Shown: positions 11,051 to 27,614, counted from the first letter of the stretch. The stretch is 32,000 nt of DNA from a virus (IMGVR_UViG_3300031576_000027:11319-43318), one strand, 5' to 3'. Notes: a model not told the origin generated them from the sequence alone. Made by a program: numbers and translations.

Positions 11051-11105
11051 TGCGGCGTGGCATGTCCAGGCTGGGCTAGGCAGGGCGCGGCAAGGCGGGG
11101 TTTGG
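11051..11105 (+). repeat. (GGCNN)n pentamer-phased repeat patch
   Basis: tgcgg cgtgg catgt ccagg ctggg ctagg caggg cgcgg caagg cgggg. Confidence 0.65.
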
Positions 11106-11525: not shown

Positions 11526-11555
11526 ACGCGGCGCCAGGCCCGCACCTGTATGTGG

Positions 11556-11595
11556 TTATTTTCTTGTTGCATCCAAGGCCGACCTGTGGGATCAT
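11556..11595 (+). promoter_or_regulatory. conserved AT-rich promoter motif, copy 1 (sigma70/sigmaA-like)
   Basis: TTATTTTCTTGTTGCAT: TTGCAT (11567-11572), 17 nt, GATCAT (11590-11595). Followed by the ACAGGAGGACGACGACG start region of gene 11619. Confidence 0.6.
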
Positions 11596-11618
11596 ACCCA
11601 TGACAGGAGGACGACGAC

Positions 11619-11966
11619 GTGATGCACCTAGTGACGACGGACCAGGATCTGCTGGCGCGGTTGTGCCAACTGCTGGATGGCCAGCCGGCCGGCGTGATCA
11701 TGCGCGCGATCGCCAACGGCCAGGCGGTCCCCTACGCCGACATGATGCGCGCGCTGCTGGACGCGATGCGGTCCGTAGAGGGTGACGACCGCCTGCGGAT
11801 CGTGGCCTGCGCATCCGCAGCGACGCGGACGCGGTTCGACGCCGAGGGCCGCGTGCGCAAGATGGACCGTGACGAGCGGATGGCCGTGGCCCCGTGGTCC
11901 CCGATCCTGCGCAGCATGGGGATCCTGGACCCGCGGTACATCCCCCCGTTGCCCAGCCCGGACTGA
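11619..11966 (+). CDS. hypothetical protein (first gene of the MoxR/VWA operon)
   Basis: ACAGGAGGACGACGAC precedes GTG 11619 / ATG 11622. G/C-rich third positions. Confidence 0.7.
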   Translation: MMHLVTTDQDLLARLCQLLDGQPAGVIMRAIANGQAVPYADMMRALLDAMRSVEGDDRLRIVACASAATRTRFDAEGRVRKMDRDERMAVAPWSPILRSMGILDPRYIPPLPSPD

Positions 11967-12016
11967 TCCTGCTACAAGACCGCAGCACCTGACCCGATCC
12001 GACAGGAGACGACGAC

Positions 12017-13207: not shown

Positions 13208-13221
13208 CTGGAGGGATGACG

Positions 13222-14517
13222 ATGGATGCCCATACCGCCTTCGCCGCAGCCCGCCTGCGCGCCGCAACCGATCGGCCCTACCTGTCCAGCGCGCTGTGGG
13301 CGCTGATCCCCGTGGTCAAGCCCGGGGTCCCGACCATGGCCTGCGACAAGTACTGGCGGGTCTACTACGACCCGGACGTGATCACGACCTGGCCGCTGGA
13401 TCAGGCGGCCGGCGCCGTCTATCACGAGGTCAGCCACCTGCTGCGCGAGCACGCGGAGCGGATGGAGGCGTACCCGTGGCCCACGGACCTGCTGCCCGAA
13501 GTCGTGCAGATCATCAACAACCTGGCGACGGACGCCGAGGAGAACGACGACCTGCTGGCCGAGGGCGTCAAGTTCCCGGTGGATCCGGTGACGCCCGCTA
13601 GCCTGGGCAAGATGGTCGGCAAGACGGTGGACAAGGGCCAGTTGGCCGAGGTCTACGTCCAGATCCTGCTGGACAACCTCCCCGCGCAGGCGGGTGGCAA
13701 ATGCGCCGGCAAGGGCCTAGGTGCCAGCGGGATGGCCAAGGGCGTGGGCGGCGGCAAGTGTGGCAGCTGCAGCCACGGCGGCCAGGATCCCTGGGAGGAA
13801 CCGGCGCCAGGTGACAAGGCCGGCAAGGACGCGGCGCCTGGCATCGGCAAGGCAGAGGGGGAGCTGATCCGCCGGCAGGTCGCCCGCGAGATCCAAGAGG
13901 CCAGCAAGACGCAGGGCAACATCCCTGGCGGCTGGCGGCGCTGGGCGGACGCCAAGCTCAAGCCCCAGGTGGATTGGCGCAAGCAGCTGCGGTCCATGGT
14001 CCGGGCGGCCGCGTACGAGGTCATGGGCGCGGCGGACTACAGCTACCGTCGCCCGGCCCGCCGGCAGGATGTGGCGCCGCGCGTCGTCCTGCCGTCGCTG
14101 CGACAGCCCGTGCCGTCGATCGCCTTCGTGATCGACACGTCCGGGTCCATGGCCAATGAGCAGGTGGCGCAGGGGATCGTGGAGGTCGGTGGGGCGCTCA
14201 AGGGCCTGGGACTGCGGGACGGTGTGCACGTGCTGGCCGTGGACGCGGCGGTGCACAGCTGCAAGCGGGTCTTCGACGCCCGGCAGATCCAGCCCCTGGG
14301 TGGTGGTGGCACGGACATGACGCTAGGGATCCAGCGCGCCATGGCGATCCGGCCCAAGCCCCAGGTGGTGGTGGTGCTGACGGACGGGTACACGGGTTGG
14401 CCTGCCCAGCGGCCGGCCGGCACGCGCGTCGTTGTCGGCATGATCGGCACCAAGGAGAAGGCGCCGGACTGGGCGCGGGTGCTGCACATTCCGGTGCACG
14501 GCAAGGCCGCGGCCTGA
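13222..14517 (+). CDS. VWA-domain protein with N-terminal HExxH metallopeptidase-like domain (DUF2201-like architecture)
   Basis: GGAGGG lies 6 nt upstream of ATG 13222 (track start 13216 is in the same frame). YHEVSHLLREH (HExxH). MIDAS motif AFVIDTSGSM. VVVLTDG. Confidence 0.85.
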   Translation: MDAHTAFAAARLRAATDRPYLSSALWALIPVVKPGVPTMACDKYWRVYYDPDVITTWPLDQAAGAVYHEVSHLLREHAERMEAYPWPTDLLPEVVQIINNLATDAEENDDLLAEGVKFPVDPVTPASLGKMVGKTVDKGQLAEVYVQILLDNLPAQAGGKCAGKGLGASGMAKGVGGGKCGSCSHGGQDPWEEPAPGDKAGKDAAPGIGKAEGELIRRQVAREIQEASKTQGNIPGGWRRWADAKLKPQVDWRKQLRSMVRAAAYEVMGAADYSYRRPARRQDVAPRVVLPSLRQPVPSIAFVIDTSGSMANEQVAQGIVEVGGALKGLGLRDGVHVLAVDAAVHSCKRVFDARQIQPLGGGGTDMTLGIQRAMAIRPKPQVVVVLTDGYTGWPAQRPAGTRVVVGMIGTKEKAPDWARVLHIPVHGKAAA

Positions 14518-14542
14518 TGCGCGGACAACCCGACTGCCACAA

Positions 14543-14944
14543 GTGTCGTGGCCACGGTTGGCTGTGCATGATCAGGGTGCGCAGTTGTGGGACGCCAGCG
14601 CCCCGAGCGGACAAGCCACCGTCATCTGCCCGACCTGCGATGGGGCCATGAGGCTGGCCGGCGATCCTGCCGGCGCAGCAGTCGTGGACGCCCTGCGAGG
14701 TCCAGGGCCGCGGTTCCTGCGTGTCGAACGCGCGGTGTCGGATCTGGCGGCGCGGTCAGCGGCTGATTTCGAGCACGTCGTACTGGCCATCCTGGACAGC
14801 CTGCATGACGAGGTCTTGAGCCAGATCCCGGCGGGCCGCGGTGGGGACTACGACCTGACCGTGACACGCCATCTGGACCCGGGCGCGATGACCCAACGCT
14901 TCACCCTGTTCGCCAGGCGCAGGCCGGTCGGTCCAGCCACCTAG
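14543..14944 (+). CDS. hypothetical zinc-ribbon protein; start unresolved, possible -1 frameshift from an ORF starting at 14517
   Basis: Frame-2 ORF with CPTCDG. An ATG at 14517 (TGATG overlap with the VWA gene) opens a different frame encoding MRGQPDCHKCRGHGWL. See finding. Confidence 0.5.
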   Translation: MSWPRLAVHDQGAQLWDASAPSGQATVICPTCDGAMRLAGDPAGAAVVDALRGPGPRFLRVERAVSDLAARSAADFEHVVLAILDSLHDEVLSQIPAGRGGDYDLTVTRHLDPGAMTQRFTLFARRRPVGPAT

Positions 14945-15077
14945 CACGAGGGGGCGGTATACCCCTCCTCTGCGGACATCGAGTCGCGGAGGCCGGGTCA
15001 GGCACGGCCTAAGCCTCCGATTTTGCGTTGGTGTGTCGTGTATAGACACTGGCATGCGTCGTGTATAGACAAGACGC
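14945..15077 (+). promoter_or_regulatory. intergenic module copy A: hairpin + conserved spacer + tandem GTATAGAC boxes/promoter
   Basis: Hairpin 14948-14967 (GAGGGG/CCCCTC). CTGCGGACATCGAGTCGCG. Box1 GTGTATAGACA 15038-15048; TGGCAT 15050-15055; box2 GTGTATAGACA 15061-15071; ATG 15078. Confidence 0.8.
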
Positions 15078-15350
15078 ATGGAAAACATCCTCAACCACCG
15101 CCTGCTGACCTGGATCGCGGCGCAGTCCGTCCTGTGCGCGGAGGCCAGCGAGATCGGGCTGCCGGCGGGCCAGGCCCCGGCTGCCGAGATCACGGTGGTG
15201 GGCCGGCACGATGCGGTGACCTACCGCTACGTCGGGGCCGAGGTGGTGAACGAGGGCGAGATCCGCAGCTGGGAGTACGCGCCGACCGCGGCCAGCCTGG
15301 TTGACTGCCCTGCGGCGCACGGTACCCGCCTGGTGATCTTCAACGACTGA
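15078..15350 (+). CDS. hypothetical protein (apparently leaderless start)
   Basis: ATG lies 8 nt after TATAGA of module A with no SD. G/C-rich third positions. Confidence 0.7.
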   Translation: MENILNHRLLTWIAAQSVLCAEASEIGLPAGQAPAAEITVVGRHDAVTYRYVGAEVVNEGEIRSWEYAPTAASLVDCPAAHGTRLVIFND

Positions 15351-15373
15351 TCGTGTCAGACAGGAGAGCGACG

Positions 15374-16051
15374 ATGACGACCATGGACAAGGCAGCAGCG
15401 GCGATCGCGGAACTGGCCCGTCGGCAGCAGGCTGTCAAGGACGCCGAGGCGGCGGTGGACAAGGCCGGCAACGACCTGATCCCGGCGCTGCGCGCGGAGT
15501 GGATCCTGCGCGGCGGCTGCGACAAGTGCAAGGGTCAGGGCTTCACGATGGAGCACTTCACCCTGGACTACATCGCCGGGGAGCCGGTGGACTGCACGTG
15601 CGATCGCAAGGCGGGCCTGGCGCCGGCCTATGGGTCCAACGGATCCAGCGACACGGACCCGCGGATCACCGAGGCGCTGGCGCCCTACCGCGCCACCCTC
15701 CGTGCGGCGCAGGTCGCGCTGGGCTGGCTGACGGTCGTGGACAAGGGCGTCCAGGTGGTGGTGGTCAAGGGCCGCAAGGTCGCGCACGGGACCACGGGCG
15801 TGGTGATCTGGCTGGGCGGATCGGCCTACAACAACGACGTGCGGCTGGGGATCAAGGACGCGGACGGCACCGTCCACTGGACGGCGAAGTCCAACGTGGT
15901 GGTGGACGCGGACCACGCGGATGCGCGCGCGGCTGCGCAGGCGCGCGGCAACGCGGCCCAGGCGCCCGGCGCCACGACCAGCAGCAGCAACGTGCCCACC
16001 GGACGGTGGGTGGGCAGCAGCTACCGGCGCCGCGGCTACCGCGGCCGGTGA
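15374..16051 (+). CDS. hypothetical protein with a CxxCxGxG zinc-finger motif
   Basis: ACAGGAGAGCGACG precedes ATG 15374 (track start 15353 is in the same frame). GGCDKCKGQGF. C-terminal Arg/Gly/Tyr-rich tail. Confidence 0.7.
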   Translation: MTTMDKAAAAIAELARRQQAVKDAEAAVDKAGNDLIPALRAEWILRGGCDKCKGQGFTMEHFTLDYIAGEPVDCTCDRKAGLAPAYGSNGSSDTDPRITEALAPYRATLRAAQVALGWLTVVDKGVQVVVVKGRKVAHGTTGVVIWLGGSAYNNDVRLGIKDADGTVHWTAKSNVVVDADHADARAAAQARGNAAQAPGATTSSSNVPTGRWVGSSYRRRGYRGR

Positions 16052-16082
16052 TCAACGACGACGACAGGAGAGGACGACGACC

Positions 16083-16922
16083 ATGCGCGAAGACGCCATC
16101 AACATCTGCGGTGCCGTGACCTGCTGGGTCCTGGCTGGCGAGTCCAGCCGGCAGACCCTGGTGGCCGACATGCCGGGCCAGCTGGTGGACCTGGTGCCGG
16201 AACCCCGGACGCACTACGCGGCCCTGCGATACGCCCTGGTGGATGTCTGCCAGGGCCAGCGGCGCCTGATCCGCCCGCTGGAGTCGCGCGGCGGGTTCAG
16301 CGTCGTGACCGAGACTGCCGACGGCGATCGCCTGGCCTATACCCAGGACATCATCGCGCTGGTGTCGGACAGCGGCCGGCTGACCATCACACCGTCCGGT
16401 CACGCGGATGGCGGGTCCGTCGAGCACAGCTACCAGCGGGCCCTGGGGACCGTGTCGTCCCAGGCCGTCGGGGAGATGCTGGCGCAGGCGGTCAACCGCC
16501 TGGGTGGCGTCCCGCTGCGGGATCACGGCGGGGTCTACTGGGTCCCGGAGCCGTCCCTTGAGGCATGGGCTGCGGTCGTGCGCGCGGTCGAGCGCGCGGG
16601 CACGGGGTCGCTGGTGTCGCTGGTCCGCACGGCCATGGACGAGCGCGGGATCAAGTCGGTGGTAGCGGCGCTGCAGGCCGACGTCAACGGGGACCTGGCG
16701 CGGATCGAGCGGGAGATCGCGGAGGGCGACCTGGGGCAGCGCGGCTGCCGCAACCGCGCTGATGAGGCCGCGGCGCTGGCATCCAAGGTGGCGCGGTACG
16801 AGGGCCTGCTGGGTGTGACCCTGGATCAGCTGCGTGCGACCGCCAGCCAGGTCGAGGCCAATGCGGCGGTGGCGGCCATGGCGGCCATGGGCGGATCCGA
16901 CAAGCAGGGGTCGCTGCTGTGA
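16083..16922 (+). CDS. hypothetical protein
   Basis: ACAGGAGAGGACGACGACC precedes ATG 16083. 279 aa with G/C-rich third positions. Confidence 0.75.
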   Translation: MREDAINICGAVTCWVLAGESSRQTLVADMPGQLVDLVPEPRTHYAALRYALVDVCQGQRRLIRPLESRGGFSVVTETADGDRLAYTQDIIALVSDSGRLTITPSGHADGGSVEHSYQRALGTVSSQAVGEMLAQAVNRLGGVPLRDHGGVYWVPEPSLEAWAAVVRAVERAGTGSLVSLVRTAMDERGIKSVVAALQADVNGDLARIEREIAEGDLGQRGCRNRADEAAALASKVARYEGLLGVTLDQLRATASQVEANAAVAAMAAMGGSDKQGSLL

Positions 16923-17140
16923 CCCCGGACTGGATCGTGGACGAGATCACGCCGACACAGGACGCACTGCGCTCCCCGCAGCATGCGTACTACCGCCTGC
17001 ACATCAGACTGCGGAACCTGTCCGCAGGCGGCGCCGTGCAGTCCTGGACGGTGCGCGATGTGGCGGACCCGCGGTACGACATCAGCGGCGCGACGATCGA
17101 CCCGCGGGCCAGGCCCTTCCTGAGGCGGACGGAGCCCTGA
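16919..17140 (+). CDS. hypothetical protein
   Basis: GTGA overlap with the upstream stop. Confidence 0.6.
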   Translation: MTPDWIVDEITPTQDALRSPQHAYYRLHIRLRNLSAGGAVQSWTVRDVADPRYDISGATIDPRARPFLRRTEP

Positions 17141-17610
17141 TGGGCCAACGCTTCCTGCGCTGCTCCTTCGACTGGATCGTGGACGTCCTGCGTGGGGATG
17201 GCGCGCGGACCGTCACGATCACCAACGGGATCCCGGCCGGCGCCAAGGTGGTCAAGATTGGTGGCGCCATGCAAGCGCACGGGCCCGACATCCTGGAGAT
17301 GTTCTTGGAGCACCTCCACTGGCCGGATGCACAGCCAACGCCGACCATCCGGCCCATCTTCCACGTGATCAAGGCGCCTGCGGACGACATGCTGCTGGCC
17401 GAGATCCGGCGGGCCTTGCGCGCGGCCTACCCGGACCGGGCGGACGTGCTGATGGCGCAACTGATGTTCCGCCTGCATCGGCCTGTCGGGGGGGCCGTTG
17501 CCACGCAGGTCTACTGCCCAGCCTGTGGCCACGACGACCAGGAACACGGCAGTCCCGTCGGGTGCACGGCGCAGATCGGGGACGGGCACCACTGCGGCTG
17601 CCCGCGCTGA
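17140..17610 (+). CDS. hypothetical protein with C-terminal Cys/His cluster
   Basis: TGATG overlap. C-terminus reads YCPACGHDDQEHGSPVGCTAQIGDGHHCGC. Confidence 0.7.
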   Translation: MGQRFLRCSFDWIVDVLRGDGARTVTITNGIPAGAKVVKIGGAMQAHGPDILEMFLEHLHWPDAQPTPTIRPIFHVIKAPADDMLLAEIRRALRAAYPDRADVLMAQLMFRLHRPVGGAVATQVYCPACGHDDQEHGSPVGCTAQIGDGHHCGCPR

Positions 17611-17614
17611 CTGT

Positions 17615-17932
17615 CTATATCGGCTGACCGCCAGGCGCGTGCACTGACCGGTGGCAGGCGCTGCACAACCATACGACACTGCGAGGATTGCGATAATCGG
17701 GATGGTGGCCCTGTGCTGGCGTACCGCCGCACCGCTTGCACGACTGACGCTGCAGATGGCCGCGGCGCACCATCGAGTTTGTGTATGAGCGGCAATTAGC
17801 CTTCAACCGTTGTTCGTCCGTCAGATCGCTGTGGCGCGGGCGCTTGGCGCGCATCCATGCCGCATGACACACGCGCCCCCATCGCTGGCCAGGTCGTCGC
17901 GGTTCAGCCTTACATTTTGTGCACAAGCCCAT
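17615..17932 (-). CDS. HNH endonuclease
   Basis: CKRCGG..GHHPDYRNPRSVVWLCSACHRSVH (HNH beta-beta-alpha metal motif). Opposite strand to its neighbours. Noticeably more A/T-ending codons than the rest of the window. Confidence 0.8.
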   Translation of the reverse strand: MGLCTKCKAEPRRPGQRWGRVCHAAWMRAKRPRHSDLTDEQRLKANCRSYTNSMVRRGHLQRQSCKRCGGTPAQGHHPDYRNPRSVVWLCSACHRSVHAPGGQPI

Positions 17933-17972
17933 ACCGCGATTGTACTAGTTCCACGGGTGTTTCAGTGGAACA

Positions 17973-18293
17973 CTAGTCCAGCGGGATGACCTGCAACTGC
18001 ATGCCGACCAGCCCAGGTGGCCGGGGGGTGCCTGCCCGCGCCAGGACCAGGTGAGCCGGGTTGCAGCACCCAGAGGTCCCGCAGGTCGGCCGGACCGCCA
18101 GGTCCCGCGGTACGGGCCCGTGACGCAGCCTGTAGGCCAGCCTGCTGGCTGGCCAGGACGTCCCGCGCCAGGACACCGTGGGGTGGCTGGCCGCCTGCCC
18201 GTGTGGCGCCCGGTACGGCCAGCAGCCGTCCGGCCCTGCGGCCTGGTCCGTCCGACTCCAGAAGGCCGCTTCCGTCACTGGTTCCCGTGTCAT
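17973..18293 (-). CDS. HNH-family (GCW..NP.HL type) homing-endonuclease-like protein, catalytic residues apparently substituted
   Basis: GCWPYRAP...ASRLAYRLRHGPVPRDLAVRPTCGTSGCCNPAHLVL matches the phage GCWxW...AHRxxY...G.IP.GL.V.H.C.N..C.NP.HL pattern, but with RP where DH/H is expected. Confidence 0.6.
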   Translation of the reverse strand: MTREPVTEAAFWSRTDQAAGPDGCWPYRAPHGQAASHPTVSWRGTSWPASRLAYRLRHGPVPRDLAVRPTCGTSGCCNPAHLVLARAGTPRPPGLVGMQLQVIPLD

Positions 18294-18311
18294 GGATCAC
18301 AAGCTATCACA

Positions 18312-18444
18312 TCCAGGAGGGGGATGGTGCCCCCTCTTCTGCGGATCCTATGTCGCGCTGTGGATAGACTTGCGGTGTAAGTCTCTGATATTGCGCCAAC
18401 CTACGGTATAGACACGTGGCACGGTCGGTGTATAGACACAAGCC
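18312..18444 (+). promoter_or_regulatory. intergenic module copy B
   Basis: Hairpin 18317-18336 (GAGGGGG/CCCCCTC). CTGCGGATCCTATGTCGCGCTGTGGATAGA. Box1 CGGTATAGACA 18404-18414; TGGCACG 18417-18423; box2 GTGTATAGACA 18428-18438; ATG 18445. Confidence 0.8.
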
Positions 18445-18699
18445 ATGGCGCTGTGCATCGACATCAAGACCACGGACGGACGGGATGCGTCCATCTCCTT
18501 CGCCCGCATCGAGCGCGAGCGCAATGTTGTCGTCCTGGGCGCCTGGGTCGATGGCGTCCCTGGGGACCACGTCCTTACCATCGGGCTGGACGTCCTGGAC
18601 ATGGGCAACCTCTGGATCTGCCTCCCGGGCGGCGCGGCGCTGGAAGGCGCGGCTGCGCGCCGGGTCGCTGACCTGGTCCGCGCGGGGGCTGCGTCGTGA
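18445..18699 (+). CDS. hypothetical protein (apparently leaderless start)
   Basis: ATG lies 8 nt after TATAGA of module B, with no SD. Confidence 0.7.
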   Translation: MALCIDIKTTDGRDASISFARIERERNVVVLGAWVDGVPGDHVLTIGLDVLDMGNLWICLPGGAALEGAAARRVADLVRAGAAS

Positions 18700-18938
18700 G
18701 GCGCCCCGTCCTGGCCGTCGAGCAGTGCCGCGGCTGCGGCGCCGACGTGGTCCAGAAGACCAAACACCTGGAGGATCCCGTCTGCAGCAGCTGCCGGTCC
18801 AAGGCACGGCGCCAGCCCAAGGCGATCGCCAATCCGGCGGCCGTCCAGGCGCCGGCCACCTGCCCGGACTGCGGCGGCCTGGGCGTCCTGGGTCCGGCCA
18901 AGCCCTGCCTGCGCTGCGGGCAGCGGGGGGTCGTCTGA
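18696..18938 (+). CDS. small DnaJ-type (CxxCxGxG) zinc-finger protein
   Basis: GTGA overlap. CRGCG, CSSC, CPDCGGLG, CLRCGQRG. Confidence 0.7.
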   Translation: MRRPVLAVEQCRGCGADVVQKTKHLEDPVCSSCRSKARRQPKAIANPAAVQAPATCPDCGGLGVLGPAKPCLRCGQRGVV

Positions 18939-19219
18939 TGCGCAACCTGCACCGACGCCAGACCTGCGACTGCTGCGGCGGATCGGCCGACATCGTCGGG
19001 CCCCAGGCGCCGGTCGTGGACGGGAGGCCGCGGTGCCCATACGCCCACGTGGGGGACCACGGCCGATGCCTGACCCACGGCGTGGACCTGGTCTTCGGCC
19101 GCAGCGGCGGGGCTTGGCAGGATGCCGACGGCAGGGACCACAGCGGGCACTACCTGTGGGGGTGGCCGGCCGTCCCGTGCTGGCTGGTGGTGACCCGGCC
19201 GGACCGTCGGGAGGGGTGA
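18938..19219 (+). CDS. hypothetical Cys/His-rich protein
   Basis: TGATG overlap. Its stop TGA (19217-19219) lies in the loop of the module C hairpin. Confidence 0.65.
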   Translation: MRNLHRRQTCDCCGGSADIVGPQAPVVDGRPRCPYAHVGDHGRCLTHGVDLVFGRSGGAWQDADGRDHSGHYLWGWPAVPCWLVVTRPDRREG

Positions 19220-19340
19220 GGATTCCCCTCCTCCGGGGACTCTGAGTCGCAGCGTGGATGACCGGAGGGCGTGATCCTGCGGAGTTGCGCACGGAGTGAC
19301 GTGTATATACGCTGGCACGCGACGTGTATAGACATATGGC
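19205..19340 (+). promoter_or_regulatory. intergenic module copy C
   Basis: Hairpin 19210-19231 (GGAGGGG/CCCCTCC). GGGGACTCTGAGTCGCAGCGTGGATGA. Box1 GTGTATATACG 19301-19311; TGGCACG 19313-19319; box2 GTGTATAGACA 19324-19334. Confidence 0.8.
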
Positions 19341-19373
19341 GTGACCAACACGATCCGACAGGGGGCGACGACG

Positions 19374-19679
19374 ATGGCGATCAAGGCAGCGATCCACCTC
19401 TACGGCACCAGCGACGCGGGCGGCTACATCGTGGCCGTGCGCACGGGCGCCACGGCAGGTGACGGCAACCCCAAGGCCGGCCGGTCGCTGACCGAAACCC
19501 TCTGGATCGCGCGGGACGCGATCTACGACATGGGCCTGGGCCCGCGTGACCTGGTGGCCGTGCACCTCGACGTCGCGCGTGGCGCTGGCCTCAAGGAGCC
19601 GCACGTGGCCACGGTGGCGCTGGGCGACGTCCGGTACTTCGGGGACCTCCGCTTCGTCGGATCGGGGGTGCTGGCGTGA
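19374..19679 (+). CDS. hypothetical protein (alternative leaderless GTG start at 19341)
   Basis: CAGGGGGCGACGACG precedes ATG 19374. In the same frame, GTG 19341 lies exactly 8 nt after TATAGA of module C. Confidence 0.7.
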   Translation: MAIKAAIHLYGTSDAGGYIVAVRTGATAGDGNPKAGRSLTETLWIARDAIYDMGLGPRDLVAVHLDVARGAGLKEPHVATVALGDVRYFGDLRFVGSGVLA

Positions 19680-19915
19680 AGACCTACGATGGCCAAGTGA
19701 TCACCCTGGAGATCGCCACCAAGCAGATCCTGGAGGGTGCCCAGGGCGGCTGGTACATGGCGTGTGATCCATGGGGACGTCCACTGCTGGCCCGCCCGAC
19801 ACAGGATCAAGCGATGCGCGACGGGCAGGACTTCCTCCGCAGGAACCCGAGCCCGGAGATGAAGGTCTGCGGCGTGGTCGTGAAGGGCGTGAACGAGCCG
19901 CGGTGCGCAACGTGA
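19676..19915 (+). CDS. hypothetical protein
   Basis: GTGA overlap. G/C-rich third positions. Confidence 0.65.
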   Translation: MKTYDGQVITLEIATKQILEGAQGGWYMACDPWGRPLLARPTQDQAMRDGQDFLRRNPSPEMKVCGVVVKGVNEPRCAT

Positions 19916-20128
19916 TCGCCCGTTGGCCCAACGGGATCGGGGACGTGGGCGACGATGCGGAGGTGATCGAGCGCCCGGACGGGACCTGGCTGGGTGCGGA
20001 TCCAGGACCCCGACGATCCGTGGCGCTGGGCTCTGTCCGAGATCATGCCGGCTGTGGTCGGGCTGTACGGACCAGATCCGGCAGCTGCCGTCCATGCAGC
20101 CAGGGCCTGGGCTGTCGGCCAGGCGTGA
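19912..20128 (+). CDS. hypothetical protein; apparent +1 frame change near 19967-20000 (or two overlapping small ORFs)
   Basis: GTGA-coupled start at 19912 in one frame. The stop at the module D hairpin (TGA 20126-20128) is in the +1 frame. Third-position G/C switches frame accordingly. Confidence 0.4.
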
Positions 20129-20258
20129 GCGGGGGTTGTACCCCCCTCATCTGCGGCAAACGAGTCGCGACGCGGGTGCCTGGGCTACGTGTAGTCGGAG
20201 GGTTACGGGCGTAGTCATGTGTCTATACCCTGGCATGCGTCGTGTATAGACATATGAC
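20126..20258 (+). promoter_or_regulatory. intergenic module copy D
   Basis: Hairpin about 20130-20147 (GGGGGT/ACCCCC). CTGCGGCAAACGAGTCGCGA. Box1 GTGTCTATACC 20219-20229 (inverted orientation); TGGCATG; box2 GTGTATAGACA 20242-20252; ATG 20259. Confidence 0.8.
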
Positions 20259-20504
20259 ATGGCGAACGTGATGATCTTCAGCAACCGGACGATGGCAGCC
20301 AAGCTCCACTCCGAGGCGTGCCCCTGCGTGGTCAGGATCAAGGCGGTGGGCAAGACCAGCAAGAACCAGGACAAGGTGCCGGTCGCGTGGCACTCCCGGG
20401 ACGGTCAGCACGTTGTCATCACCCTGGACCGGTGGGACGCCGCGGATGCGGCCGAGCGCGGGATCAAGGTGGGGAAGTGCAGCTGCGCCGAGCCGGCCAG
20501 CTGA
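20259..20504 (+). CDS. hypothetical protein (apparently leaderless start)
   Basis: ATG lies 8 nt after TATAGA of module D, with no SD. Confidence 0.7.
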   Translation: MANVMIFSNRTMAAKLHSEACPCVVRIKAVGKTSKNQDKVPVAWHSRDGQHVVITLDRWDAADAAERGIKVGKCSCAEPAS

Positions 20505-20520
20505 CCGACGGGGGGACGAC

Positions 20521-20728
20521 GATGAGGACGGGGACGCGGGTGCAGACCAGGGGGACGTTGCAACAGACCGGGCAGCCGGTCGTGCCGGCCGGGACGACCG
20601 GGACGGTGGTGGCCGTGCAGGTGGTCGGGCCGGCCTTCCTTGGGGTCCGGGTCCACCAGGTTGCCTGGGCGACCGGACAGACCACGACCGTGGCCAACGC
20701 GCACTTGCTGCTGGCGGTGGTGCCGTGA
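20521..20728 (+). CDS. hypothetical protein
   Basis: GGGGGGACGACG precedes ATG 20521. Confidence 0.65.
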
Positions 20729-21048
20729 CCCGCCTAAGCCCCACGCAGCAGACGCTGGTGGACCGGCTGCGCCGGGAGTCCATGGGCGGCCGGATCGAGC
20801 GGCGCCCGGGAGGCTTCTGGACGGCGCCCGAAACGATCAGCAGCGCGGACGGCGTGCCGGACTGGTACGTCACCACCCACACGATCCAGGCGCTTGCCAA
20901 GCGCGGCGTGCTGGTCCAGACCGCGACCAGGACCAACGGGAGCGGCGGGCTTTTCGTGGTGGAGTACCAGCTGGCCGAGATGGCCAGGCCGGGCGTCACC
21001 GTGCCGCAGGGCACGCTGCAGGACGACGACAACACAGGAGGGACCTGA
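20725..21048 (+). CDS. hypothetical protein
   Basis: GTGA overlap. G/C-rich third positions. Confidence 0.65.
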   Translation: MTRLSPTQQTLVDRLRRESMGGRIERRPGGFWTAPETISSADGVPDWYVTTHTIQALAKRGVLVQTATRTNGSGGLFVVEYQLAEMARPGVTVPQGTLQDDDNTGGT

Positions 21049-21050
21049 CG

Positions 21051-21437
21051 ATGTCCACGATGCCGATGCACGACCCGCTGATCAACAAGGTGCTCCGCTG
21101 GCTGCGCGAGGACGTGGCACTACGCCAGGCCGACCTGCGCACCTGGGCGGGCAAGTTCATGGCCGACCCGGCCGACCGCCTACAGTGGTCGCTGGAGGAA
21201 TTTGCGAACGCTGCTCGTGTCCAGATCTTCGGTGCTGCCATCGACGCCTTGCTGGGCGGCCGCAGCATCCCTGACCTGATCGCCTTTGCGAAGGATCAGG
21301 CCATGCATGCGACGCTCTACCCGTCGCGCAGCACGTCACCGACGCACAACTTGATGGAGCAGGAACGCGCGGCCGCCTGGGCGCGGTTGGCTGCAGAGCT
21401 TGGTTGCCTGCTGGCGGACCACAAGGAAGGAGCCTGA
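21051..21437 (+). CDS. hypothetical protein
   Basis: ACAGGAGGGACCTGACG precedes ATG 21051. Confidence 0.7.
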   Translation: MSTMPMHDPLINKVLRWLREDVALRQADLRTWAGKFMADPADRLQWSLEEFANAARVQIFGAAIDALLGGRSIPDLIAFAKDQAMHATLYPSRSTSPTHNLMEQERAAAWARLAAELGCLLADHKEGA

Positions 21438-21439
21438 CG

Positions 21440-21784
21440 ATGGCCACGATGCCCTGCAAGACCTGCGCGGGTGTCCGCGCCTTCGATGATCCGTCGCAGT
21501 GCCCGGACTGCGCGGGTGGGCGCGTAGTCTATGTGCCGATCGAGCGCGACGACCACATCCGCCTGGACGCCAGCCTGGTCAACAAGCTGATCCGGGATGC
21601 CTTCAAGGAAGGAACCAGGATCGGCACCCACTTCGTGGCGTGCGATCGCGCCCTGATCGTCGGCAAGCAGTGCGTGTCGGGCCTGACCGACGACCAGATC
21701 CTGGCGATCGCGCGCGGCGATGCCGAACTGTTCGGCTGCACGCCAGAGCCGATCGGGTACCGCGTGGTCGGGGGTGGCGGATGA
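21440..21784 (+). CDS. hypothetical protein with N-terminal CxxC..CxxCxGG zinc-finger
   Basis: AAGGAAGGAGCCTGACG precedes ATG 21440. CKTCAG and CPDCAGGR. Confidence 0.7.
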   Translation: MATMPCKTCAGVRAFDDPSQCPDCAGGRVVYVPIERDDHIRLDASLVNKLIRDAFKEGTRIGTHFVACDRALIVGKQCVSGLTDDQILAIARGDAELFGCTPEPIGYRVVGGGG

Positions 21785-22035
21785 CGGCCAAGCAGCACAA
21801 GCGCCAGGAGCGGGAGCGGCAGGAACGGCAGGCGGACCTGCACGAGGCCCGTGCGCGGGTCCGCGACGCGATCATCATGGCTCTCCGATTGGAAGGCACG
21901 CTGGCCAACGCGCTGATGGGCGCCGCGTCCACGGGCTACCCGATGAACACTGCGGTCAACGTGGCCGTCACGGAACTGGACCTGGTCTTCGCGCAGCTGG
22001 TCCAGGCGCAGCGACTGCTGCAGGGTGGGCGCTGA
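21781..22035 (+). CDS. hypothetical protein (charged N-terminal helix)
   Basis: ATGA overlap. Confidence 0.65.
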   Translation: MTAKQHKRQERERQERQADLHEARARVRDAIIMALRLEGTLANALMGAASTGYPMNTAVNVAVTELDLVFAQLVQAQRLLQGGR

Positions 22036-22036
22036 C

Positions 22037-22489
22037 ATGCGTGCTGGCACCCGGCAGGTCCCGATCATGTGTAACGTGTCCTGCAATGGCAGCCGTCACA
22101 GCATCGGCGTGACAACTACCGGCAAGGTCGTGCTGATGTCGCACATCCAGGACCGGACCGCCGTTGCAGCTGCATCTGCCCTGGGCACGCCATGCCGATG
22201 CTTGGACGTGGAGCGGCGCTGGGCGCGGGCCACCAACGCCGTGCTGTCCACTGGACACCGACGATCGCTGGCGCGGGGTCTGCCACCGATCCTGGAACGC
22301 GCGGCGATTTACGGGGTCCCGCGGACGGTGGACTGGCTGTCAAGGCGGACCCCCGACGCGCTGGCGCAGAAGCGCGCGGATCACGCGCGCGCGAAGGTGC
22401 GGGATCTGACCAGGCGGATCAAGGCGCTGCAGACGCGCCTCCATGGCTGGCGGCGTAAGGTGGAAAACTACGAGCGAGGAGGCAAATGA
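22037..22489 (+). CDS. hypothetical protein
   Basis: ATG lies 1 nt after the upstream TGA (a GTG at 22025 is in the same frame). Confidence 0.65.
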   Translation: MRAGTRQVPIMCNVSCNGSRHSIGVTTTGKVVLMSHIQDRTAVAAASALGTPCRCLDVERRWARATNAVLSTGHRRSLARGLPPILERAAIYGVPRTVDWLSRRTPDALAQKRADHARAKVRDLTRRIKALQTRLHGWRRKVENYERGGK

Positions 22490-22511
22490 CCCGCCGGTTT
22501 TACCCGGCGGG
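22490..22511 (+). terminator. hairpin after gene 22037..22489 (no U-tail)
   Basis: CCCGCCGG-ttttac-CCGGCGGG. Confidence 0.4.
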
Positions 22512-22514
22512 CCC

Positions 22515-22585
22515 AATGCACCACGCCTTGCCTAACCCCGCCGCACCACACCGTGCCTTGGCTTGCCCACCCGCGCCTTGCCAGA
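22515..22585 (-). repeat. (GGCNN)n repeat patch in inverted orientation
   Basis: cgcct tgcct aaccc cgccg cacca caccg tgcct tggct tgccc acccg cgcct tgcca. GCCTTGCC is the reverse complement of GGCAAGGC. Confidence 0.65.
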
Positions 22586-22637
22586 CGTGGATGATTGTAA
22601 TGGGCGACATTCGACAACAACAAGGAGGGACCTGATC

Positions 22638-23048
22638 GTGGACAAGATGCTGACCGTGAGAGATTGCTCGTACGTCGTAGGATCCAAGATGCGCGGCCGC
22701 GCAACGGAACGCTGCGGCAAGCCGGCGGTTGTCCAGGCCATCAAACCGGACCCGATCTACGGCCGCGAACTGGTCCTGGACCGCGGCTGCAAGTTGCACA
22801 TGACGGAGCGGTTCGCCAGCCCCGACCAGATCGCGGCCGGCGTCAAGCTGGTGGCCATCGAGCAGCGCAAGTCTGACGCGCCGCAGCACGATCCAAAGAC
22901 CGGCGAGGACAGGCACGTCTTCGTCGTCCGGGTCCGCAAGTCCACCTGGCGATCGCTGCTGGCGCTGGCCAAGGCGCAGGGCAAGACGGCATCGGCCGTG
23001 ATCCATTCGTTGATCGAGAGGGCGGCCAACGATCACCCGGCGCCCTGA
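22638..23048 (+). CDS. putative ribbon-helix-helix (CopG/Arc-like) DNA-binding protein
   Basis: CAAGGAGGGACCTGATC precedes GTG 22638. The C-terminus HVFVVRVRKSTWRSLLALAKAQGKTASAVIHSLIERA fits a beta-strand/helix/helix RHH pattern. Confidence 0.55.
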   Translation: MDKMLTVRDCSYVVGSKMRGRATERCGKPAVVQAIKPDPIYGRELVLDRGCKLHMTERFASPDQIAAGVKLVAIEQRKSDAPQHDPKTGEDRHVFVVRVRKSTWRSLLALAKAQGKTASAVIHSLIERAANDHPAP

Positions 23049-23071
23049 CCGGCGCCAGCAGGAGGACGACG

Positions 23072-23356
23072 ATGGCAAAGCGGGATGACACGGCGGACCA
23101 GGCCGAGCGGGATCGGATCGCCTGGATGGAATGGGCGTCTACGGACGGCAAGGTGCGGGCCTGGTCCGAGGCGTCGAGCATGGTCCGGGAACTGGCGGGG
23201 AGGCTGTTCATGGAACACCAGGACGCGGCCGCGGACATGACACGCGCCCTTGCGCTGCAGCTGCATGACCTGGCCTTGAAGGAGACAGACGTGCGGACGG
23301 AACTGCGCCGGGCCCTGGACGGGCGCAACCGTCGCCGCAAGCCCAAGGAGGGGTGA
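23072..23356 (+). CDS. hypothetical protein
   Basis: CAGGAGGACGACG precedes ATG 23072. Its stop TGA (23354-23356) lies in the loop of the module E hairpin. Confidence 0.7.
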   Translation: MAKRDDTADQAERDRIAWMEWASTDGKVRAWSEASSMVRELAGRLFMEHQDAAADMTRALALQLHDLALKETDVRTELRRALDGRNRRRKPKEG

Positions 23357-23476
23357 ATCGCCCCCTCTTCCGCGGACATCGAGTCGCACTGTGGATGGAT
23401 CCGGGGCGCAAGTCTCTGATCTGCCGTAGGCGTGTAGGTATATACGATGGCACACGACGTGTATAGACACACAGGT
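23345..23476 (+). promoter_or_regulatory. intergenic module copy E
   Basis: Hairpin 23348-23367 (GAGGGG/CCCCTC). CGCGGACATCGAGTCGCACTGTGGATGGA. Box1 GGTATATACG 23437-23446; TGGCACA; box2 GTGTATAGACA 23459-23469; ATG 23477. Confidence 0.8.
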
Positions 23477-24040
23477 ATGAAGACCATTGCCCAGGTGCTG
23501 CTGCCAAACGGGACGATCGCGGAACGGCAGAGCGCGAGCCGGACCTACACCCACGCCATCCTGGTGATCGACACGCCGGCTGCCAAGGCGGCCCGTGTCG
23601 CCCGCGCCCAGGCCGAGCTTGCCAGGGTGCAGGCCAAGCTGGCGGCCATCCCGACGGTTGGCGACGAGGCGGCGGCCAGGGCCGAGGCCGGGGCCATGAA
23701 GGCCAAGCTGGACCTCGGCAGCGGCGATGCGGAATGGGGATCCCCTGACCGCAAGGCCAATTGGGACGCCTGGTGCGCGCTCAACCACCGCTACCACAAC
23801 CTGCCCGTGATCCTGCGCGACTCGGCCAACTGGGAGCTTGGCATTGCCAGCGAACGACTGGCGGACGCCCAGCGCGACGAGGCGCCCAGCATCAACCAGT
23901 GGTCCATGTCCGGATCCAACGCCCGCAAGGGCGCCAGCACCCTCGCGAAGAAGCCCTACATGGCCGGCTACGACATCTCGGTGGTGCCCACCACGCAGGC
24001 GACCAAGGCCGCCAAGGTGGCGACGCGGGGTGTCCGGTGA
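23477..24040 (+). CDS. hypothetical protein (apparently leaderless start)
   Basis: ATG 23477 lies 9 nt after TATAGA. The track start 23447 falls inside the TGGCAC promoter element and is unlikely. Confidence 0.7.
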   Translation: MKTIAQVLLPNGTIAERQSASRTYTHAILVIDTPAAKAARVARAQAELARVQAKLAAIPTVGDEAAARAEAGAMKAKLDLGSGDAEWGSPDRKANWDAWCALNHRYHNLPVILRDSANWELGIASERLADAQRDEAPSINQWSMSGSNARKGASTLAKKPYMAGYDISVVPTTQATKAAKVATRGVR

Positions 24041-24267
24041 TCACCATGACCGATGTGCTGGTGTCGGACCTCAAGGTTGGCGACCAGGTTGCCGAACGGG
24101 ACAGCTACCTGCTGACGGTCGTGGAGATCATGCCGGTGGCTGGCAACCGTCGTGGCCTGGACACCCGCGTGACCTTCAAGGCGGACGGACCCTGCGGAAC
24201 CATCCAGACCTTCATGAGCGGGACGTCACGTGTGCGCCTGGTCCTGCGGGACGGGGTGGCGTCGTGA
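24037..24267 (+). CDS. hypothetical protein
   Basis: GTGA overlap (alternative ATG at 24046). Confidence 0.6.
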   Translation: MITMTDVLVSDLKVGDQVAERDSYLLTVVEIMPVAGNRRGLDTRVTFKADGPCGTIQTFMSGTSRVRLVLRDGVAS

Positions 24268-24440
24268 TCCGCACACGCGAGGCAGCGTCCTGGGCGGACG
24301 TCCTGGCGGCGATCGACCGGGTCGCGGCAATGCAGGAGGACTACCGGCACGGCGGCAGCGAGGCGGACCTGCGCCGGGCGCTGCGGGATCTGGACAGGGT
24401 GCGCCGCGACTACAAGGCGGCACTGGAGTGCGGACGATGA
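24264..24440 (+). CDS. hypothetical protein
   Basis: GTGA overlap. 58 aa with G/C-rich third positions. Confidence 0.55.
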   Translation: MIRTREAASWADVLAAIDRVAAMQEDYRHGGSEADLRRALRDLDRVRRDYKAALECGR

Positions 24441-24661
24441 CCGCCATGATCACCCTGCAGGTCTTCGCCGCGGCGCTGGGCTGCGACCGGGACTGGACCT
24501 TGGAGCACATCGGCCCTGGCGGGGTCGGGTACTGGGTCTGTCAAGGCACGCGCTGGACGGTCCGCAACGACAGGCCGCGCTACCAGTGGGGGCTGTACTG
24601 GGCCGGCGACTACGTCGGGACCTACGCGACGATGCAGGCAGCTGCGGAGGCGATCACGTGA
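24437..24661 (+). CDS. hypothetical protein
   Basis: ATGA overlap. Confidence 0.6.
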   Translation: MTAMITLQVFAAALGCDRDWTLEHIGPGGVGYWVCQGTRWTVRNDRPRYQWGLYWAGDYVGTYATMQAAAEAIT

Positions 24662-24996
24662 CCATGCCAGATCCCAGGCGCAAGCAGCTGCGCATGCTGG
24701 CCATGCGCATCACGCGGATCCGGCGCTGGTCGGTCGAGGTCGTGGACCTGGCCGCGTCCAAGCTCCGATGGACCTGCAAGACCTGCGGTTGGTCCCAGGT
24801 GCGCGTCGAGGTGAGCGGGCCCAAGCGCAATGGCAAGCACATCAAGGCGCTGTCGCGCCCTGTCAACCCAGTGCTGCTGGCCAAGTTGGCGCGCTACTGG
24901 TCCGACCCGAACAGCGCGGGATGCACTGGCAGGTGCGCCCGGTGCACCAAGCAGGCACGGGACGAGGCATATCCCGGGTGGGACGCCCGTGGCTGA
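24658..24996 (+). CDS. hypothetical Cys-rich protein
   Basis: GTGA overlap (ATG 24664 in the same frame). CKTCGW and CTGRCARC. Confidence 0.6.
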   Translation: MTMPDPRRKQLRMLAMRITRIRRWSVEVVDLAASKLRWTCKTCGWSQVRVEVSGPKRNGKHIKALSRPVNPVLLAKLARYWSDPNSAGCTGRCARCTKQARDEAYPGWDARG

Positions 24997-25273
24997 TCTG
25001 ATCGTCGTGCGCTGTGGCTGCCGGCAGACCTACACCCAGGCGCAGTGGGATCAGCTGCCGCTGGTGGGCTACCAGGACGCGCCGGCCGACTGGTCGGACT
25101 GCGATTGCAGGGTCCGCAAGAACAAGCGCGGCAGTCACAGCACGACCTGCGCCGGGCATGCCTACCGACTGGAACTCCGAAACTGCCTGGCCGTGCACCG
25201 TGGCTATCCGTGCGGCACGACCCTGACCCGGGAAGTCGCCCGCGGCGAGCGGTTGCCACCCAAGCCGGGGTGA
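24989..25273 (+). CDS. hypothetical Cys-rich protein
   Basis: GTG with 8-nt overlap. Its stop TGA (25271-25273) sits at the module F hairpin. Confidence 0.6.
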   Translation: MADLIVVRCGCRQTYTQAQWDQLPLVGYQDAPADWSDCDCRVRKNKRGSHSTTCAGHAYRLELRNCLAVHRGYPCGTTLTREVARGERLPPKPG

Positions 25274-25392
25274 GGTATCCCCTCCTCTGCGGACTCTCTG
25301 TCGCGCTGTTGATGGATTTGGCAGCTAACTCCGCGTTCCTGCGTAGCCTGTCGCGTCTATACACTGGCACGGGTAGTGTATAGACATACCAC
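25264..25392 (+). promoter_or_regulatory. intergenic module copy F (degenerate hairpin)
   Basis: GGGG-tgaggtat-CCCC. CTGCGGACTCTCTGTCGCGCTGTTGATGGA. Box1 GCGTCTATACA 25353-25363 (inverted orientation); TGGCACG; box2 GTGTATAGACA 25376-25386; ATG 25393. Confidence 0.75.
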
Positions 25393-26289
25393 ATGACCAC
25401 GCTGACCAACCTGGACGATGCCAAGGCCGCTGCAGCACGGGGCGCCCTCTTTGTCGTGTCGCACTCGGGCGGCAAGGACAGCCAGGCGCAGATGATCAAG
25501 GTGCTGGAGATCGTGCCCGCCAGCCAGGTCGTGGTGGTCCATGCGGACCTGGCCGAGGTCGAGTGGGCCGGGACCCGCGAGCACGCGGAAGCCCAGGCCA
25601 AGGCGGCCGGCGTCCCCTTCGTCGCGGCCAAGGCGCACACCAAGGCCGGCGACGACCTGACCTTCCTGGGCATGGCCGCCCGCCGTCACGCGCAGCGTCC
25701 CGAGGTCCCCAGCTGGCCGTCCAGCAGCACCCGGCAGTGCACCAGCGACCTCAAGCGCGGCCCGATCGCCCGCGAGGTCCGGGCCTACGCCAAGGCGAAC
25801 GGGTACACGGAGATCGTGATGGTCGAGGGCCTGCGCGCTGCGGAGTCCCCCAAGCGCGCGAAGTTGGACGCCTGGACCAAGGACGCGCGCAACAGCACGG
25901 GTGGCCGGACCTGGTGGGTGTGGCTCCCGATCCATCAGATGACCACCGCCGAAGTCTTCGCGACGATCAAGGCCGCAGGCCAGGAGCCGCACTGGGCGTA
26001 CGCGGTCGGCAACGATCGGCTCAGTTGCACCTTCTGCATCATGGGGTCGCGCGGCGATGCGCAGCGCGGCGCCATCTACAACCCGGCGCTCTTTGCCGCC
26101 TACGTCGAGATGGAGCGCCGGACCGGCTACACCGCGCACATGAGCCGCAAGTCGATCGAGGAGGTGGCTGGGATGACCGTGGCGCAGGCGCAGGCCGCCA
26201 ACGCGGACATCAAGGCTGGCCGGCGGCCGGGGCTCCCGGTGATCCAGGACGAGCCGGCGCGGGACATCCCGCCCTGCATGGGACGCTAA
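25393..26289 (+). CDS. PAPS-reductase-family PP-loop ATP pyrophosphatase-like protein
   Basis: VSHSGGKDS PP-loop near the N-terminus, CTSDLKRGP, EGLRAAES, and C-terminal LSCTFC, in the order typical of the PAPS reductase/DndC-type fold. Apparently leaderless ATG 8 nt after TATAGA. Confidence 0.8.
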   Translation: MTTLTNLDDAKAAAARGALFVVSHSGGKDSQAQMIKVLEIVPASQVVVVHADLAEVEWAGTREHAEAQAKAAGVPFVAAKAHTKAGDDLTFLGMAARRHAQRPEVPSWPSSSTRQCTSDLKRGPIAREVRAYAKANGYTEIVMVEGLRAAESPKRAKLDAWTKDARNSTGGRTWWVWLPIHQMTTAEVFATIKAAGQEPHWAYAVGNDRLSCTFCIMGSRGDAQRGAIYNPALFAAYVEMERRTGYTAHMSRKSIEEVAGMTVAQAQAANADIKAGRRPGLPVIQDEPARDIPPCMGR

Positions 26290-26304
26290 CAGGAGGACGC
26301 TACG

Positions 26305-27531: not shown

Positions 27532-27551
27532 CGCGGAGCGTCACAGGCTGC

Positions 27552-27591
27552 TAATTTTCTTGTTGCACCGACCTTGGACCTGTGGCACATT
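27552..27591 (+). promoter_or_regulatory. conserved AT-rich promoter motif, copy 2
   Basis: TAATTTTCTTGTTGCAC: TTGCAC (27563-27568), 17 nt, CACATT (27586-27591), then ACAGGAGGACGGT-ATG. Confidence 0.6.
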
Positions 27592-27614
27592 GGGATCGTA
27601 GACAGGAGGACGGT

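Follow-up and report, generated by a model that had tools for sequence, protein, structure and literature searches.

Six copies of a composite intergenic module delimit small-gene cassettes in a high-GC tailed phage and may carry a phage-specific promoter with a leaderless start

In a 32,000-nucleotide stretch of viral DNA (IMGVR_UViG_3300031576_000027:11319-43318; hereafter the window, to whose first letter coordinates refer), we find that six copies of a ~135-bp intergenic module, named A to F, divide a region of small genes into cassettes. Each module combines a GGGG/CCCC hairpin, a conserved spacer and a promoter-like block of two short boxes (box 1 and box 2) that ends just before a start codon. 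We conclude that the modules are a real, statistically solid regulatory repeat. We further propose, with moderate confidence, that each may act as a self-contained composite transcription-unit boundary with a phage-specific promoter or operator from which a leaderless message starts.

To set the modules in their genome, we used a protein 100% identical to the PAPS-reductase-like protein encoded 3′ of module F as the entry to the source contig. The complete genome was assembled from overlapping pieces of ENA ERZ27247320 contig k141_3047319 and matches the window exactly. It is circular, with 78,840 bp and 68.4% GC (the 78,981-bp contig has a 141-bp terminal overlap), and the window (68% GC, with all confident genes on the + strand) bridges the end junction of the deposited contig. 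Two further assemblies carry sequence identical to this genome. An apparent second strain at the Joint Genome Institute (JGI) was rejected, as its protein "variants" are a GTG start written either V or M in the same sequence.

The six modules align at the positions given in the original prediction (Table 1), with a mean column identity of 68% and long invariant blocks. When a profile of the six copies was run against the complete genome with nhmmer, exactly those six were recovered, with E values of 1e-30 to 1e-33; the + strand is otherwise empty, and no partial copies are present. All six lie on the coding strand within 10.4 kb. The string TGGCAY-N5-GTGTATAGACA, in which GTGTATAGACA is box 2, is exact in 6/6 copies, where 0.06 matches are expected by chance; when up to two mismatches are allowed, GTGTATAGACA has 17 matches, where 1.8 would be expected. 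Each module contains the 8-bp box GTMTAKAC twice, and these 12 occurrences are the only ones in the genome; the hairpin arm with its adjoining tract is likewise found only in the modules. Modules B and E also have the block AAGTCTCTGAT in common. The homology of the six copies, the invariance of box 2 and the block shared by B and E had all been predicted and held up on alignment, and the profile search, which had been proposed as a check, returned no further copy.

The conservation of the modules appears to reflect selection and not recent duplication: variable columns are near saturation (45-70% identity), against invariant blocks of 5-11 bp. The genes that flank the modules are not paralogues, so a recent segmental duplication does not account for the modules. 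Duplication of whole cassettes was considered and rejected, as there are no paralogous cassette proteins, and a miniature inverted-repeat transposable element or other mobile element is unlikely given the lack of terminal inverted repeats, of partial copies and of copies outside gene boundaries. The upstream stop codon stands just before the hairpin in A and D and within the hairpin loop in C, E and F, and thus marks the module in 5/6 copies; module B is the exception, as no + strand gene ends there.

The 3′ part of each module has a fixed geometry relative to the gene that follows. Counting the first base of the start codon as +1, box 2 spans −17 to −7, TGGCAY spans −28 to −23 and box 1 spans approximately −38 to −31. 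The start codon, which had been described as following immediately, stands 6 nt after box 2 (7 nt in E) in 6/6 copies, and the starts of the boxes are 23 bp apart (24 bp in B), as had been noted. The predicted starts downstream of A, B, D and F agree with independent gene calls in a public collection. None of the six module genes has a Shine-Dalgarno (SD) core, compared with 23/46 of the other uncoupled genes (Fisher p = 0.03). TGGCA is invariant in the six modules; its extension to TGGCAYG, which had been described for every copy, holds in 5/6, as E reads TGGCACA. The description of box 1 as GTATA(G/T)AC required a larger correction: box 1 is a pseudo-palindrome, GTMTAKAC, which reads GTATAGAC in A and B, is a perfect palindrome (GTATATAC) in C and E, and is present in reverse as GTCTATAC in D and F. 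The free orientation and palindromy of box 1 suggest that a symmetric protein binds it as double-stranded DNA. Box 2 is fixed in orientation and invariant, and this added directional constraint points to promoter function. At the −10 position, the hexamer is TAGACA in 6/6 copies and lacks the final T of TANNNT; an alternative hexamer, TATAGA, would lie 8 bp from the start codon. A consensus scan detected no sigma-70 consensus promoter in the modules.

The hairpin was predicted as GGAGGGG-loop-CCCCTCC in each copy; in F it is degenerate. GGGG...CCCCTC is invariant, and conservation is of the sequence itself and not through covariation; the loops are not conserved. The genome has a single canonical hairpin followed by a T-tract, at 11492-11518 (a 10-bp all-GC stem, then GTTTTGT). 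This terminator follows a tRNA-Met (CAT) gene at 11217-11291 and stands directly before the first of the sigma-70-type promoters described below. Because the other strong gene-end hairpins of the genome, such as the one after the capsid gene, likewise have no T-tract, a role of the module hairpin as terminator or attenuator is plausible. From CCCCTC to box 2, copies B, E and F measure 97 bp and copies A, C and D 99 bp despite internal indels, and spacer identity between copies is only 45-70%. Selection appears to act on total length, on a few blocks (CCCCTCYTCYGSGG and GTCGC) and on the promoter part. Pairwise similarity differs by part: copy D, for example, diverges most in the spacer and ranks with the closest copies in the promoter part.

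Table 1. Positions of the modules, the cassettes that follow them and the sigma-70-type promoters (window coordinates).
Feature	Coordinates	Strand	Description
Module A	14945..15077	+	Upstream TAG 14942-14944; hairpin 14948-14970; CCCCTC and tract from 14962
Module A, 3′ part		+	Box 1 GTATAGAC 15040-15047; TGGCAT 15050-15055; box 2 GTGTATAGACA 15061-15071; N6; ATG 15078
Module B	18312..18444	+	Hairpin 18315-18338 (9-bp stem); minus-strand HNH-like open reading frame (ORF) adjoins
Module B, 3′ part		+	Box 1 GTATAGAC 18406-18413, 24 bp from box 2; TGGCAC 18417-18422; box 2 18428-18438; ATG 18445
Module C	19205..19340	+	Hairpin 19209-19232; upstream TGA 19217-19219 in loop
Module C, 3′ part		+	Box 1 GTATATAC 19303-19310; TGGCAC 19313-19318; box 2 19324-19334; GTG 19341
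Module D	20126..20258	+	TGA 20126-20128 at hairpin foot (GAGCGGGGG/CCCCCCTCA); CCCCTC at 20143
Module D, 3′ part		+	Box 1 GTCTATAC (reverse orientation) 20221-20228; TGGCAT 20231-20236; box 2 20242-20252; ATG 20259
Module E	23345..23476	+	Hairpin 23346-23369; upstream TGA 23354-23356 in loop
Module E, 3′ part		+	Box 1 GTATATAC 23438-23445; TGGCAC 23448-23453; box 2 23459-23469; N7; ATG 23477
Module F	25264..25392	+	Degenerate hairpin (GGGG/CCCC only); TGA 25271-25273 in loop; CCCCTCCTCTGCGGAC fully conserved from 25279
Module F, 3′ part		+	Box 1 GTCTATAC (reverse orientation) 25355-25362; TGGCAC 25365-25370; box 2 25376-25386; ATG 25393 (PAPS-reductase-like gene)
Cassette A	15078-17610	+	Small genes, putatively driven by module A
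Cassette B	18445-19219	+	Small genes, putatively driven by module B
Cassette C	19341-20128	+	Small genes, putatively driven by module C
Cassette D	20259-23356	+	Small genes, putatively driven by module D
Cassette E	23477-25273	+	Small genes, putatively driven by module E
Sigma-70-type promoter 1	11553-11618	+	TTGTTGC, 18-bp spacer, GATCAT, leader with GACAGGAGGACGACG; upstream of operon 11619-14944, which ends at module A
Sigma-70-type promoter 2	27549-27614		TTGTTGC, 17-19-bp spacer, nAnnnT; GACAGGAGGACGACG, then start codon
Sigma-70-type promoter 3	31763-31829		TTGTTGC, 17-19-bp spacer, nAnnnT; GACAGGAGGACGACG, then start codon

We considered the modules against the other promoter types of this genome. 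Three sigma-70-type leadered promoters are present, each with an AT tract, TTGTTGC, a 17-19-bp spacer, nAnnnT and a ~20-nt leader with GGAGGA, and these are probably read by host polymerase alone. Because such ordinary promoters coexist with the modules, the modules would form a separate, second and non-canonical promoter class. In addition, a canonical TANNNT followed by 6 or 7 nt and a start codon without SD is found at approximately five other genes (window positions 2621 and 5311, the latter the lysin; and, in the genome by window-based coordinates, 33204, 57785 [portal] and 63380 on the minus strand). These are possible housekeeping-sigma leaderless promoters and hint that the host is able to translate leaderless mRNAs.

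Under the boundary model that we favor, the hairpin at the upstream stop codon would end, attenuate or stabilize the incoming transcript, and the last 45 bp of the module would be a phage-specific promoter comprising box 1 (GTMTAKAC), TGGCAY, N5 and GTGTATAGACA. Transcription would begin at the start codon or within 1-3 nt of it, giving a leaderless or near-leaderless mRNA for the first gene of the cassette, because TAGACA ends 6-7 bp before an ATG or GTG without SD in 6/6 copies. At the modules, host RNA polymerase would need a phage-encoded specificity factor or activator, because the hexamer TAGACA is not TANNNT and the invariant stretch far exceeds a −10 element in length. Another possibility, which could also hold alongside this one, is that the two pseudo-palindromic boxes, set 23 bp apart, are operators through which one regulator switches all six cassettes. 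The spacer, with its compensated length, is most simply viewed as an upstream region for protein binding whose distance from the promoter is fixed. Repetition of the modules would also supply homology for the gain, loss and shuffling of cassettes, as with the promoter-early stem-loops (PeSLs) of T4-type phages.

PeSLs are composites of a GGGG...CCCC stem-loop and a promoter that flank ORFans in T4-type phages (Arbiol et al. 2010 PMC2839356; Comeau et al. 2014 PMC4122927), and their promoter and terminator activity as well as recombination have been shown experimentally (PMC2839356, PMC4122927). The modules resemble them as a small composite terminator/promoter motif present in many copies in a region rich in small ORFans, with the downstream ORFans as autonomous cassettes. 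They likewise place a GGGG...CCCC stem-loop directly upstream of a promoter, putative here, in one repeated intergenic motif, and they flank ORFans, as the cassette proteins are family-less and without paralogues. The promoters differ, since those of PeSLs follow the Escherichia coli sigma-70 consensus with an AT-rich upstream tract. Unlike PeSLs, the modules also include two pseudo-palindromic boxes, a conserved spacer of ~60 bp whose overall length is fixed, and an SD-less start 6-7 nt after the last box, and they reside in a high-GC, siphovirus-like genome that is unrelated to T4-type phages.

The early genes of the Streptomyces phage phiC31 had been suggested as a precedent, and the phiC31 record (NC_001978) bears this out: in its early region, GGGTTGCCGACTCCCTTAC stands at ~10 intergenic sites, and an 18-bp inverted repeat, CCTACTCACGTGAGTAGG, is likewise present ~10 times. 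In both phages, many copies of one non-sigma-70 motif occupy early intergenic sites of a high-GC genome on the coding strand before short operons, and a second conserved inverted-repeat element often stands just upstream of the motif. However, GGGTTGCCGACTCCCTTAC and CCTACTCACGTGAGTAGG have no sequence similarity to TGGCAY-N5-GTGTATAGACA and GGAGGGG/CCCCTCC, and the phiC31 motifs lie 22-37 nt before start codons and so give leadered mRNAs. Furthermore, phiC31 encodes gp12, annotated as a sigma factor, and a known repressor, and a tblastn search found no homologue of either in this genome.

The identity of the host bears on the proposed start. Among named homologues of the PAPS reductase, those from Deinococcus match best, and homologues of a protein with a VWA domain are carried on actinobacterial plasmids; no named relatives of the lysin were found. 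Deinococcota and Actinomycetota are the best-supported host groups, for which these homologues are only hints. Leaderless promoters whose −10 motif adjoins the ORF are a feature of the Deinococcus-Thermus group and are common in Actinomycetota as well. The leaderless genes of Deinococcus radiodurans have a TANNNT −10 motif ~6-7 bp upstream of the ORF (PMC12340547), and 60% of Deinococcus deserti mRNAs are leaderless (PMC4007540). In all six modules, a hexamer at the −10 position likewise ends 6-7 bp before an SD-less start. They differ in that their hexamer (TAGACA, or TATAGA at 8 bp) has no final T of TANNNT, and in that it lies inside an invariant 11-mer with TGGCA 5 bp upstream and a second box at −35.

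Repeated motifs at gene starts are also familiar from mycobacteriophages. The start-associated sequences of Cluster K phages include the ribosome-binding region, and the stoperators of Cluster A phages are asymmetric 13-14-bp sites, more than 20 per genome, that are oriented with transcription and bound by the immunity repressor. As with these, the modules are short conserved motifs repeated at gene starts or boundaries and would be tied to phage-wide regulation; unlike them, they are six composite 135-bp units confined to one 10-kb region and without SD.

Several results weigh against the boundary model. The hairpin is no more stable than shuffled controls, its tails hold 0-2 T with no T-tract, so that it is not a canonical intrinsic terminator, and in module F it is degenerate, with a left arm of GCCGGGG that leaves 4 G-C pairs (the right arm and tract, CCCCTCCTCTGCGGAC, are intact). 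No RNA polymerase or sigma factor family is recognizable in the complete genome, either in precomputed Pfam tables or in our own scans. Searches of Pfam, PHROGs and NCBIfam with proteins of the early operon and with the protein that opens each cassette were empty, and the only DNA-binding candidate is a 43-amino-acid Arc-like ribbon-helix-helix (RHH) protein encoded far from the modules. AlphaFold models of gp11619 and of the first cassette D protein were of low confidence, with a predicted local distance difference test (pLDDT) score of 59 and 46, respectively, and Foldseek gave no match with E < 1. Lastly, the collections searched hold no related genome with which conservation or recombination could be compared. 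The original prediction of a transcription-unit boundary with a special promoter therefore stands in part: the position at gene boundaries, the fixed 6-7-nt SD-less start and a promoter part unlike the sigma-70-type promoters of the genome agree with it, and the phage RNA polymerase or sigma factor that it offered as one option is not recognizable. Since the complete genome encodes no recognizable RNA polymerase, a promoter for a phage-encoded polymerase is unlikely, and the gene tables and scans likewise hold no polymerase family that would assign the modules to the single-subunit (T7-like) promoter class.

The main alternative needs no new specificity factor. In this account, which we regard as unlikely yet worth serious thought, the modules would be ordinary leaderless promoters of the host housekeeping sigma factor with a weak −10 (TATAGA or TAGACA), and the boxes would be operators of a phage repressor, for example the small RHH protein, that shuts off or delays the six cassettes. 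The pseudo-palindromic box 1 occurs in either orientation, as do dimer sites, and the boxes span the −35 and −10 positions; the genome does encode an Arc-like RHH protein, and phiC31 places repeated operators beside repeated promoters. However, the last base of the hexamer, a key contact of housekeeping sigma, is A and not T in 6/6 copies. The box sequence is absent near the RHH gene and everywhere else in the genome, nothing ties the RHH protein to the boxes, and the gene tables of the complete genome show neither an integrase nor a lysogeny module. It is improbable that the modules are mainly a recombination device, that is, a PeSL-like mobile regulatory cassette that shuffles ORFans and is conserved by gene conversion or recombination, with promoter and terminator activity secondary. 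The layout, a GGGG...CCCC stem-loop and then a promoter in a variable region with flanking ORFans, is that of PeSLs (PMC2839356, PMC4122927); the hairpin is kept as sequence without covariation, and similarity between copies is unequal between the spacer and the promoter part, as in copy D. Nevertheless, no related genome or strain variant was found in which module-bounded indels could show (V or M at the start codon is all that separates the apparent JGI variants), the near-saturated variable columns argue against recent homogenization, and a recombination role is compatible with the promoter reading and does not exclude it.

We also weighed elements that would act in RNA, with the hairpin and tract as a 3′ end, processing or antitermination signal and box 2 as a translational operator or SD-independent ribosome loader in a short 5′ untranslated region whose transcription would begin further upstream. 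The invariant 11-nt box 2 occupies the usual place of the SD, RNAalifold draws a second hairpin within the spacer, and in C, D, E and F the first base of TGGCA completes a TACNCT hexamer, a possible −10 that would give a ~21-nt leader. We find this account quite improbable: box 1 is inverted in two copies, which fits recognition of DNA and not of RNA, the hairpin loops are unconserved, and the window has no Rfam match at gathering score. Covariation in the spacer does not exceed controls either, as 70/500 shuffles reach the observed count of pairs changed on both sides. A sigma-70-like reading with TTGCGY as the −35 and TACNCT as the −10 was rejected, since TTGCGY sits 15-17 bp from the hexamer and this spacer is too variable. 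A sigma-54-type −24/−12 promoter (TGGCAC-N5-nTGnA), with the upstream inverted repeat as enhancer and the neighboring AAA+ ATPase as activator, would account for several features: TGGCAC fits the −24 element and stands at the right distance from the next block, transcription would be predicted to start 2 nt ahead of the ATG, an inverted repeat lies ~100 bp upstream, and the MoxR-like ATPase has a partial PF00158 match. Even so, we consider it hardly credible, since the near-invariant GC of the −12 element is GT in 6/6 copies, the ATPase is of the MoxR/AAA_5 type without a GAFTGA-like motif, and the genome has no convincing RpoN box. Deinococcota and Actinomycetota are also not known to have sigma-54, which we count against this promoter type.

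Repeated terminator/promoter cassettes and phage-specific promoter classes are already known; what is new here is the sequence, the spacer of fixed length and the leaderless geometry with a non-TANNNT hexamer. A bolder version of the boundary model, which we hold to be doubtful, is that the modules represent a new promoter class in which one of the ORFans, encoding a divergent sigma-like protein or a sigma appropriator, would supply the factor that recognizes TGGCA-N6-GTGTATAGACA and sets a leaderless start. The distance-locked CCCCTCYTCYGSGG...GTCGC, ~100 bp away, would then be enhancer-like or an insulator, and the whole would be a portable, self-contained cassette. If the boundary model were confirmed, the modules would provide a compact and portable expression unit (insulating hairpin, promoter and leaderless start) from a deep-branching phage of a high-GC host, together with a pointer to a factor that redirects host RNA polymerase to a non-TANNNT promoter. 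The idea drawn from PeSLs, that regulatory cassettes partition and probably shuffle ORFan regions, would also extend beyond T4-type myoviruses to an unrelated lineage. The value of the finding is limited in that its general architecture is known already and function is read from sequence throughout.

The genome that carries the modules is effectively a singleton, with no tested protein having a homologue above ~62% identity. Megablast and blastn searches against phages found no close relative, nor did tblastn with the VWA, structural, radical SAM, terminase and capsid proteins; the best matches among isolated phages are ≤35% identical for the capsid and ≤40% for the terminase. In a collection of 5.8 billion proteins, two module-adjacent proteins have next-best homologues of 47-62% identity, which belong to unrelated lineages; the PAPS reductase, VWA protein and lysin, used as queries in large protein searches, led to no close relative. 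The PAPS-reductase homologues found on 80-92-kb contigs belong to unrelated phages, and in each the gene overlaps its upstream neighbor. A search for related loci with the MoxR protein gave one match at 41% identity, in a low-GC 154-kb phage without a comparable module. Exact module motifs in three public collections of viral, genome and metagenome contigs had only single chance matches, mostly low-GC; two high-GC matches are single-copy and unrelated.

The structural and packaging gene order establishes that the source genome is that of a tailed phage. The genes run from terminase, portal and a MuF-like protein through a small minus-strand cluster to protease and capsid, tail genes and a C1q-like fibre. 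They continue with an NlpC/P60 lysin, a largely non-coding stretch, tRNA-Met, radical SAM, the MoxR-like ATPase and a VWA/DUF2201 protein, and then with the six modules and their cassettes, PAPS reductase, C5 methylase, YqaJ-type exonuclease, RusA and many small genes. The cassette proteins match no Pfam, PHROG or NCBIfam family, and there are no paralogues among them. Genes inside the cassettes have an AGGAGG ribosome-binding site or overlap the preceding gene. Within cassette D, a conserved ~37-nt junction, GACAACACAGGAGGGACCTGAcgATG, precedes three internal genes (21028-21064, 21417-21453 and 22615-22651), which thus share one ribosome-binding and stop-restart context.

Downstream of module F, the region 25393-28802 encodes a PAPS reductase (DndC-like), a C5 cytosine methylase with a SymE/AbrB-like N-terminal domain and a protein with a ScoMcrA_N-like domain, a gene set that looks like a DNA-modification or modification-sensing module. 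Adjoining module B, a minus-strand ORF at 17973-18293 has a weak HNH_3 endonuclease-like match (E 1.6e-4, under the Pfam cutoff) and a low coding score. It is the sole minus-strand candidate of the cassette region, possibly the remains of a homing endonuclease that has decayed. The tail genes include a second HNH_3 gene, also on the minus strand (1365-1616 of its contig piece). The portal protein (732 amino acids, genome ~57.8-60.0 kb) has a uracil-DNA-glycosylase (PF03167) match in a precomputed table, which would be an unusual fusion if real.

Arrays of (NNGGY)n with a 5-bp period are present at 6164-9484 and 11067-11101 on the + strand and at 22520-22559 on the minus strand. They occupy the largely non-coding stretch from the lysin to the radical SAM gene, with one opposite-strand run within cassette D. 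Because both N positions are variable, the arrays are not specifically connected to TGGCA. The + strand holds 16 runs of at least five consecutive units, 113 units in total, where shuffled sequences would be expected to yield 0.08 runs.

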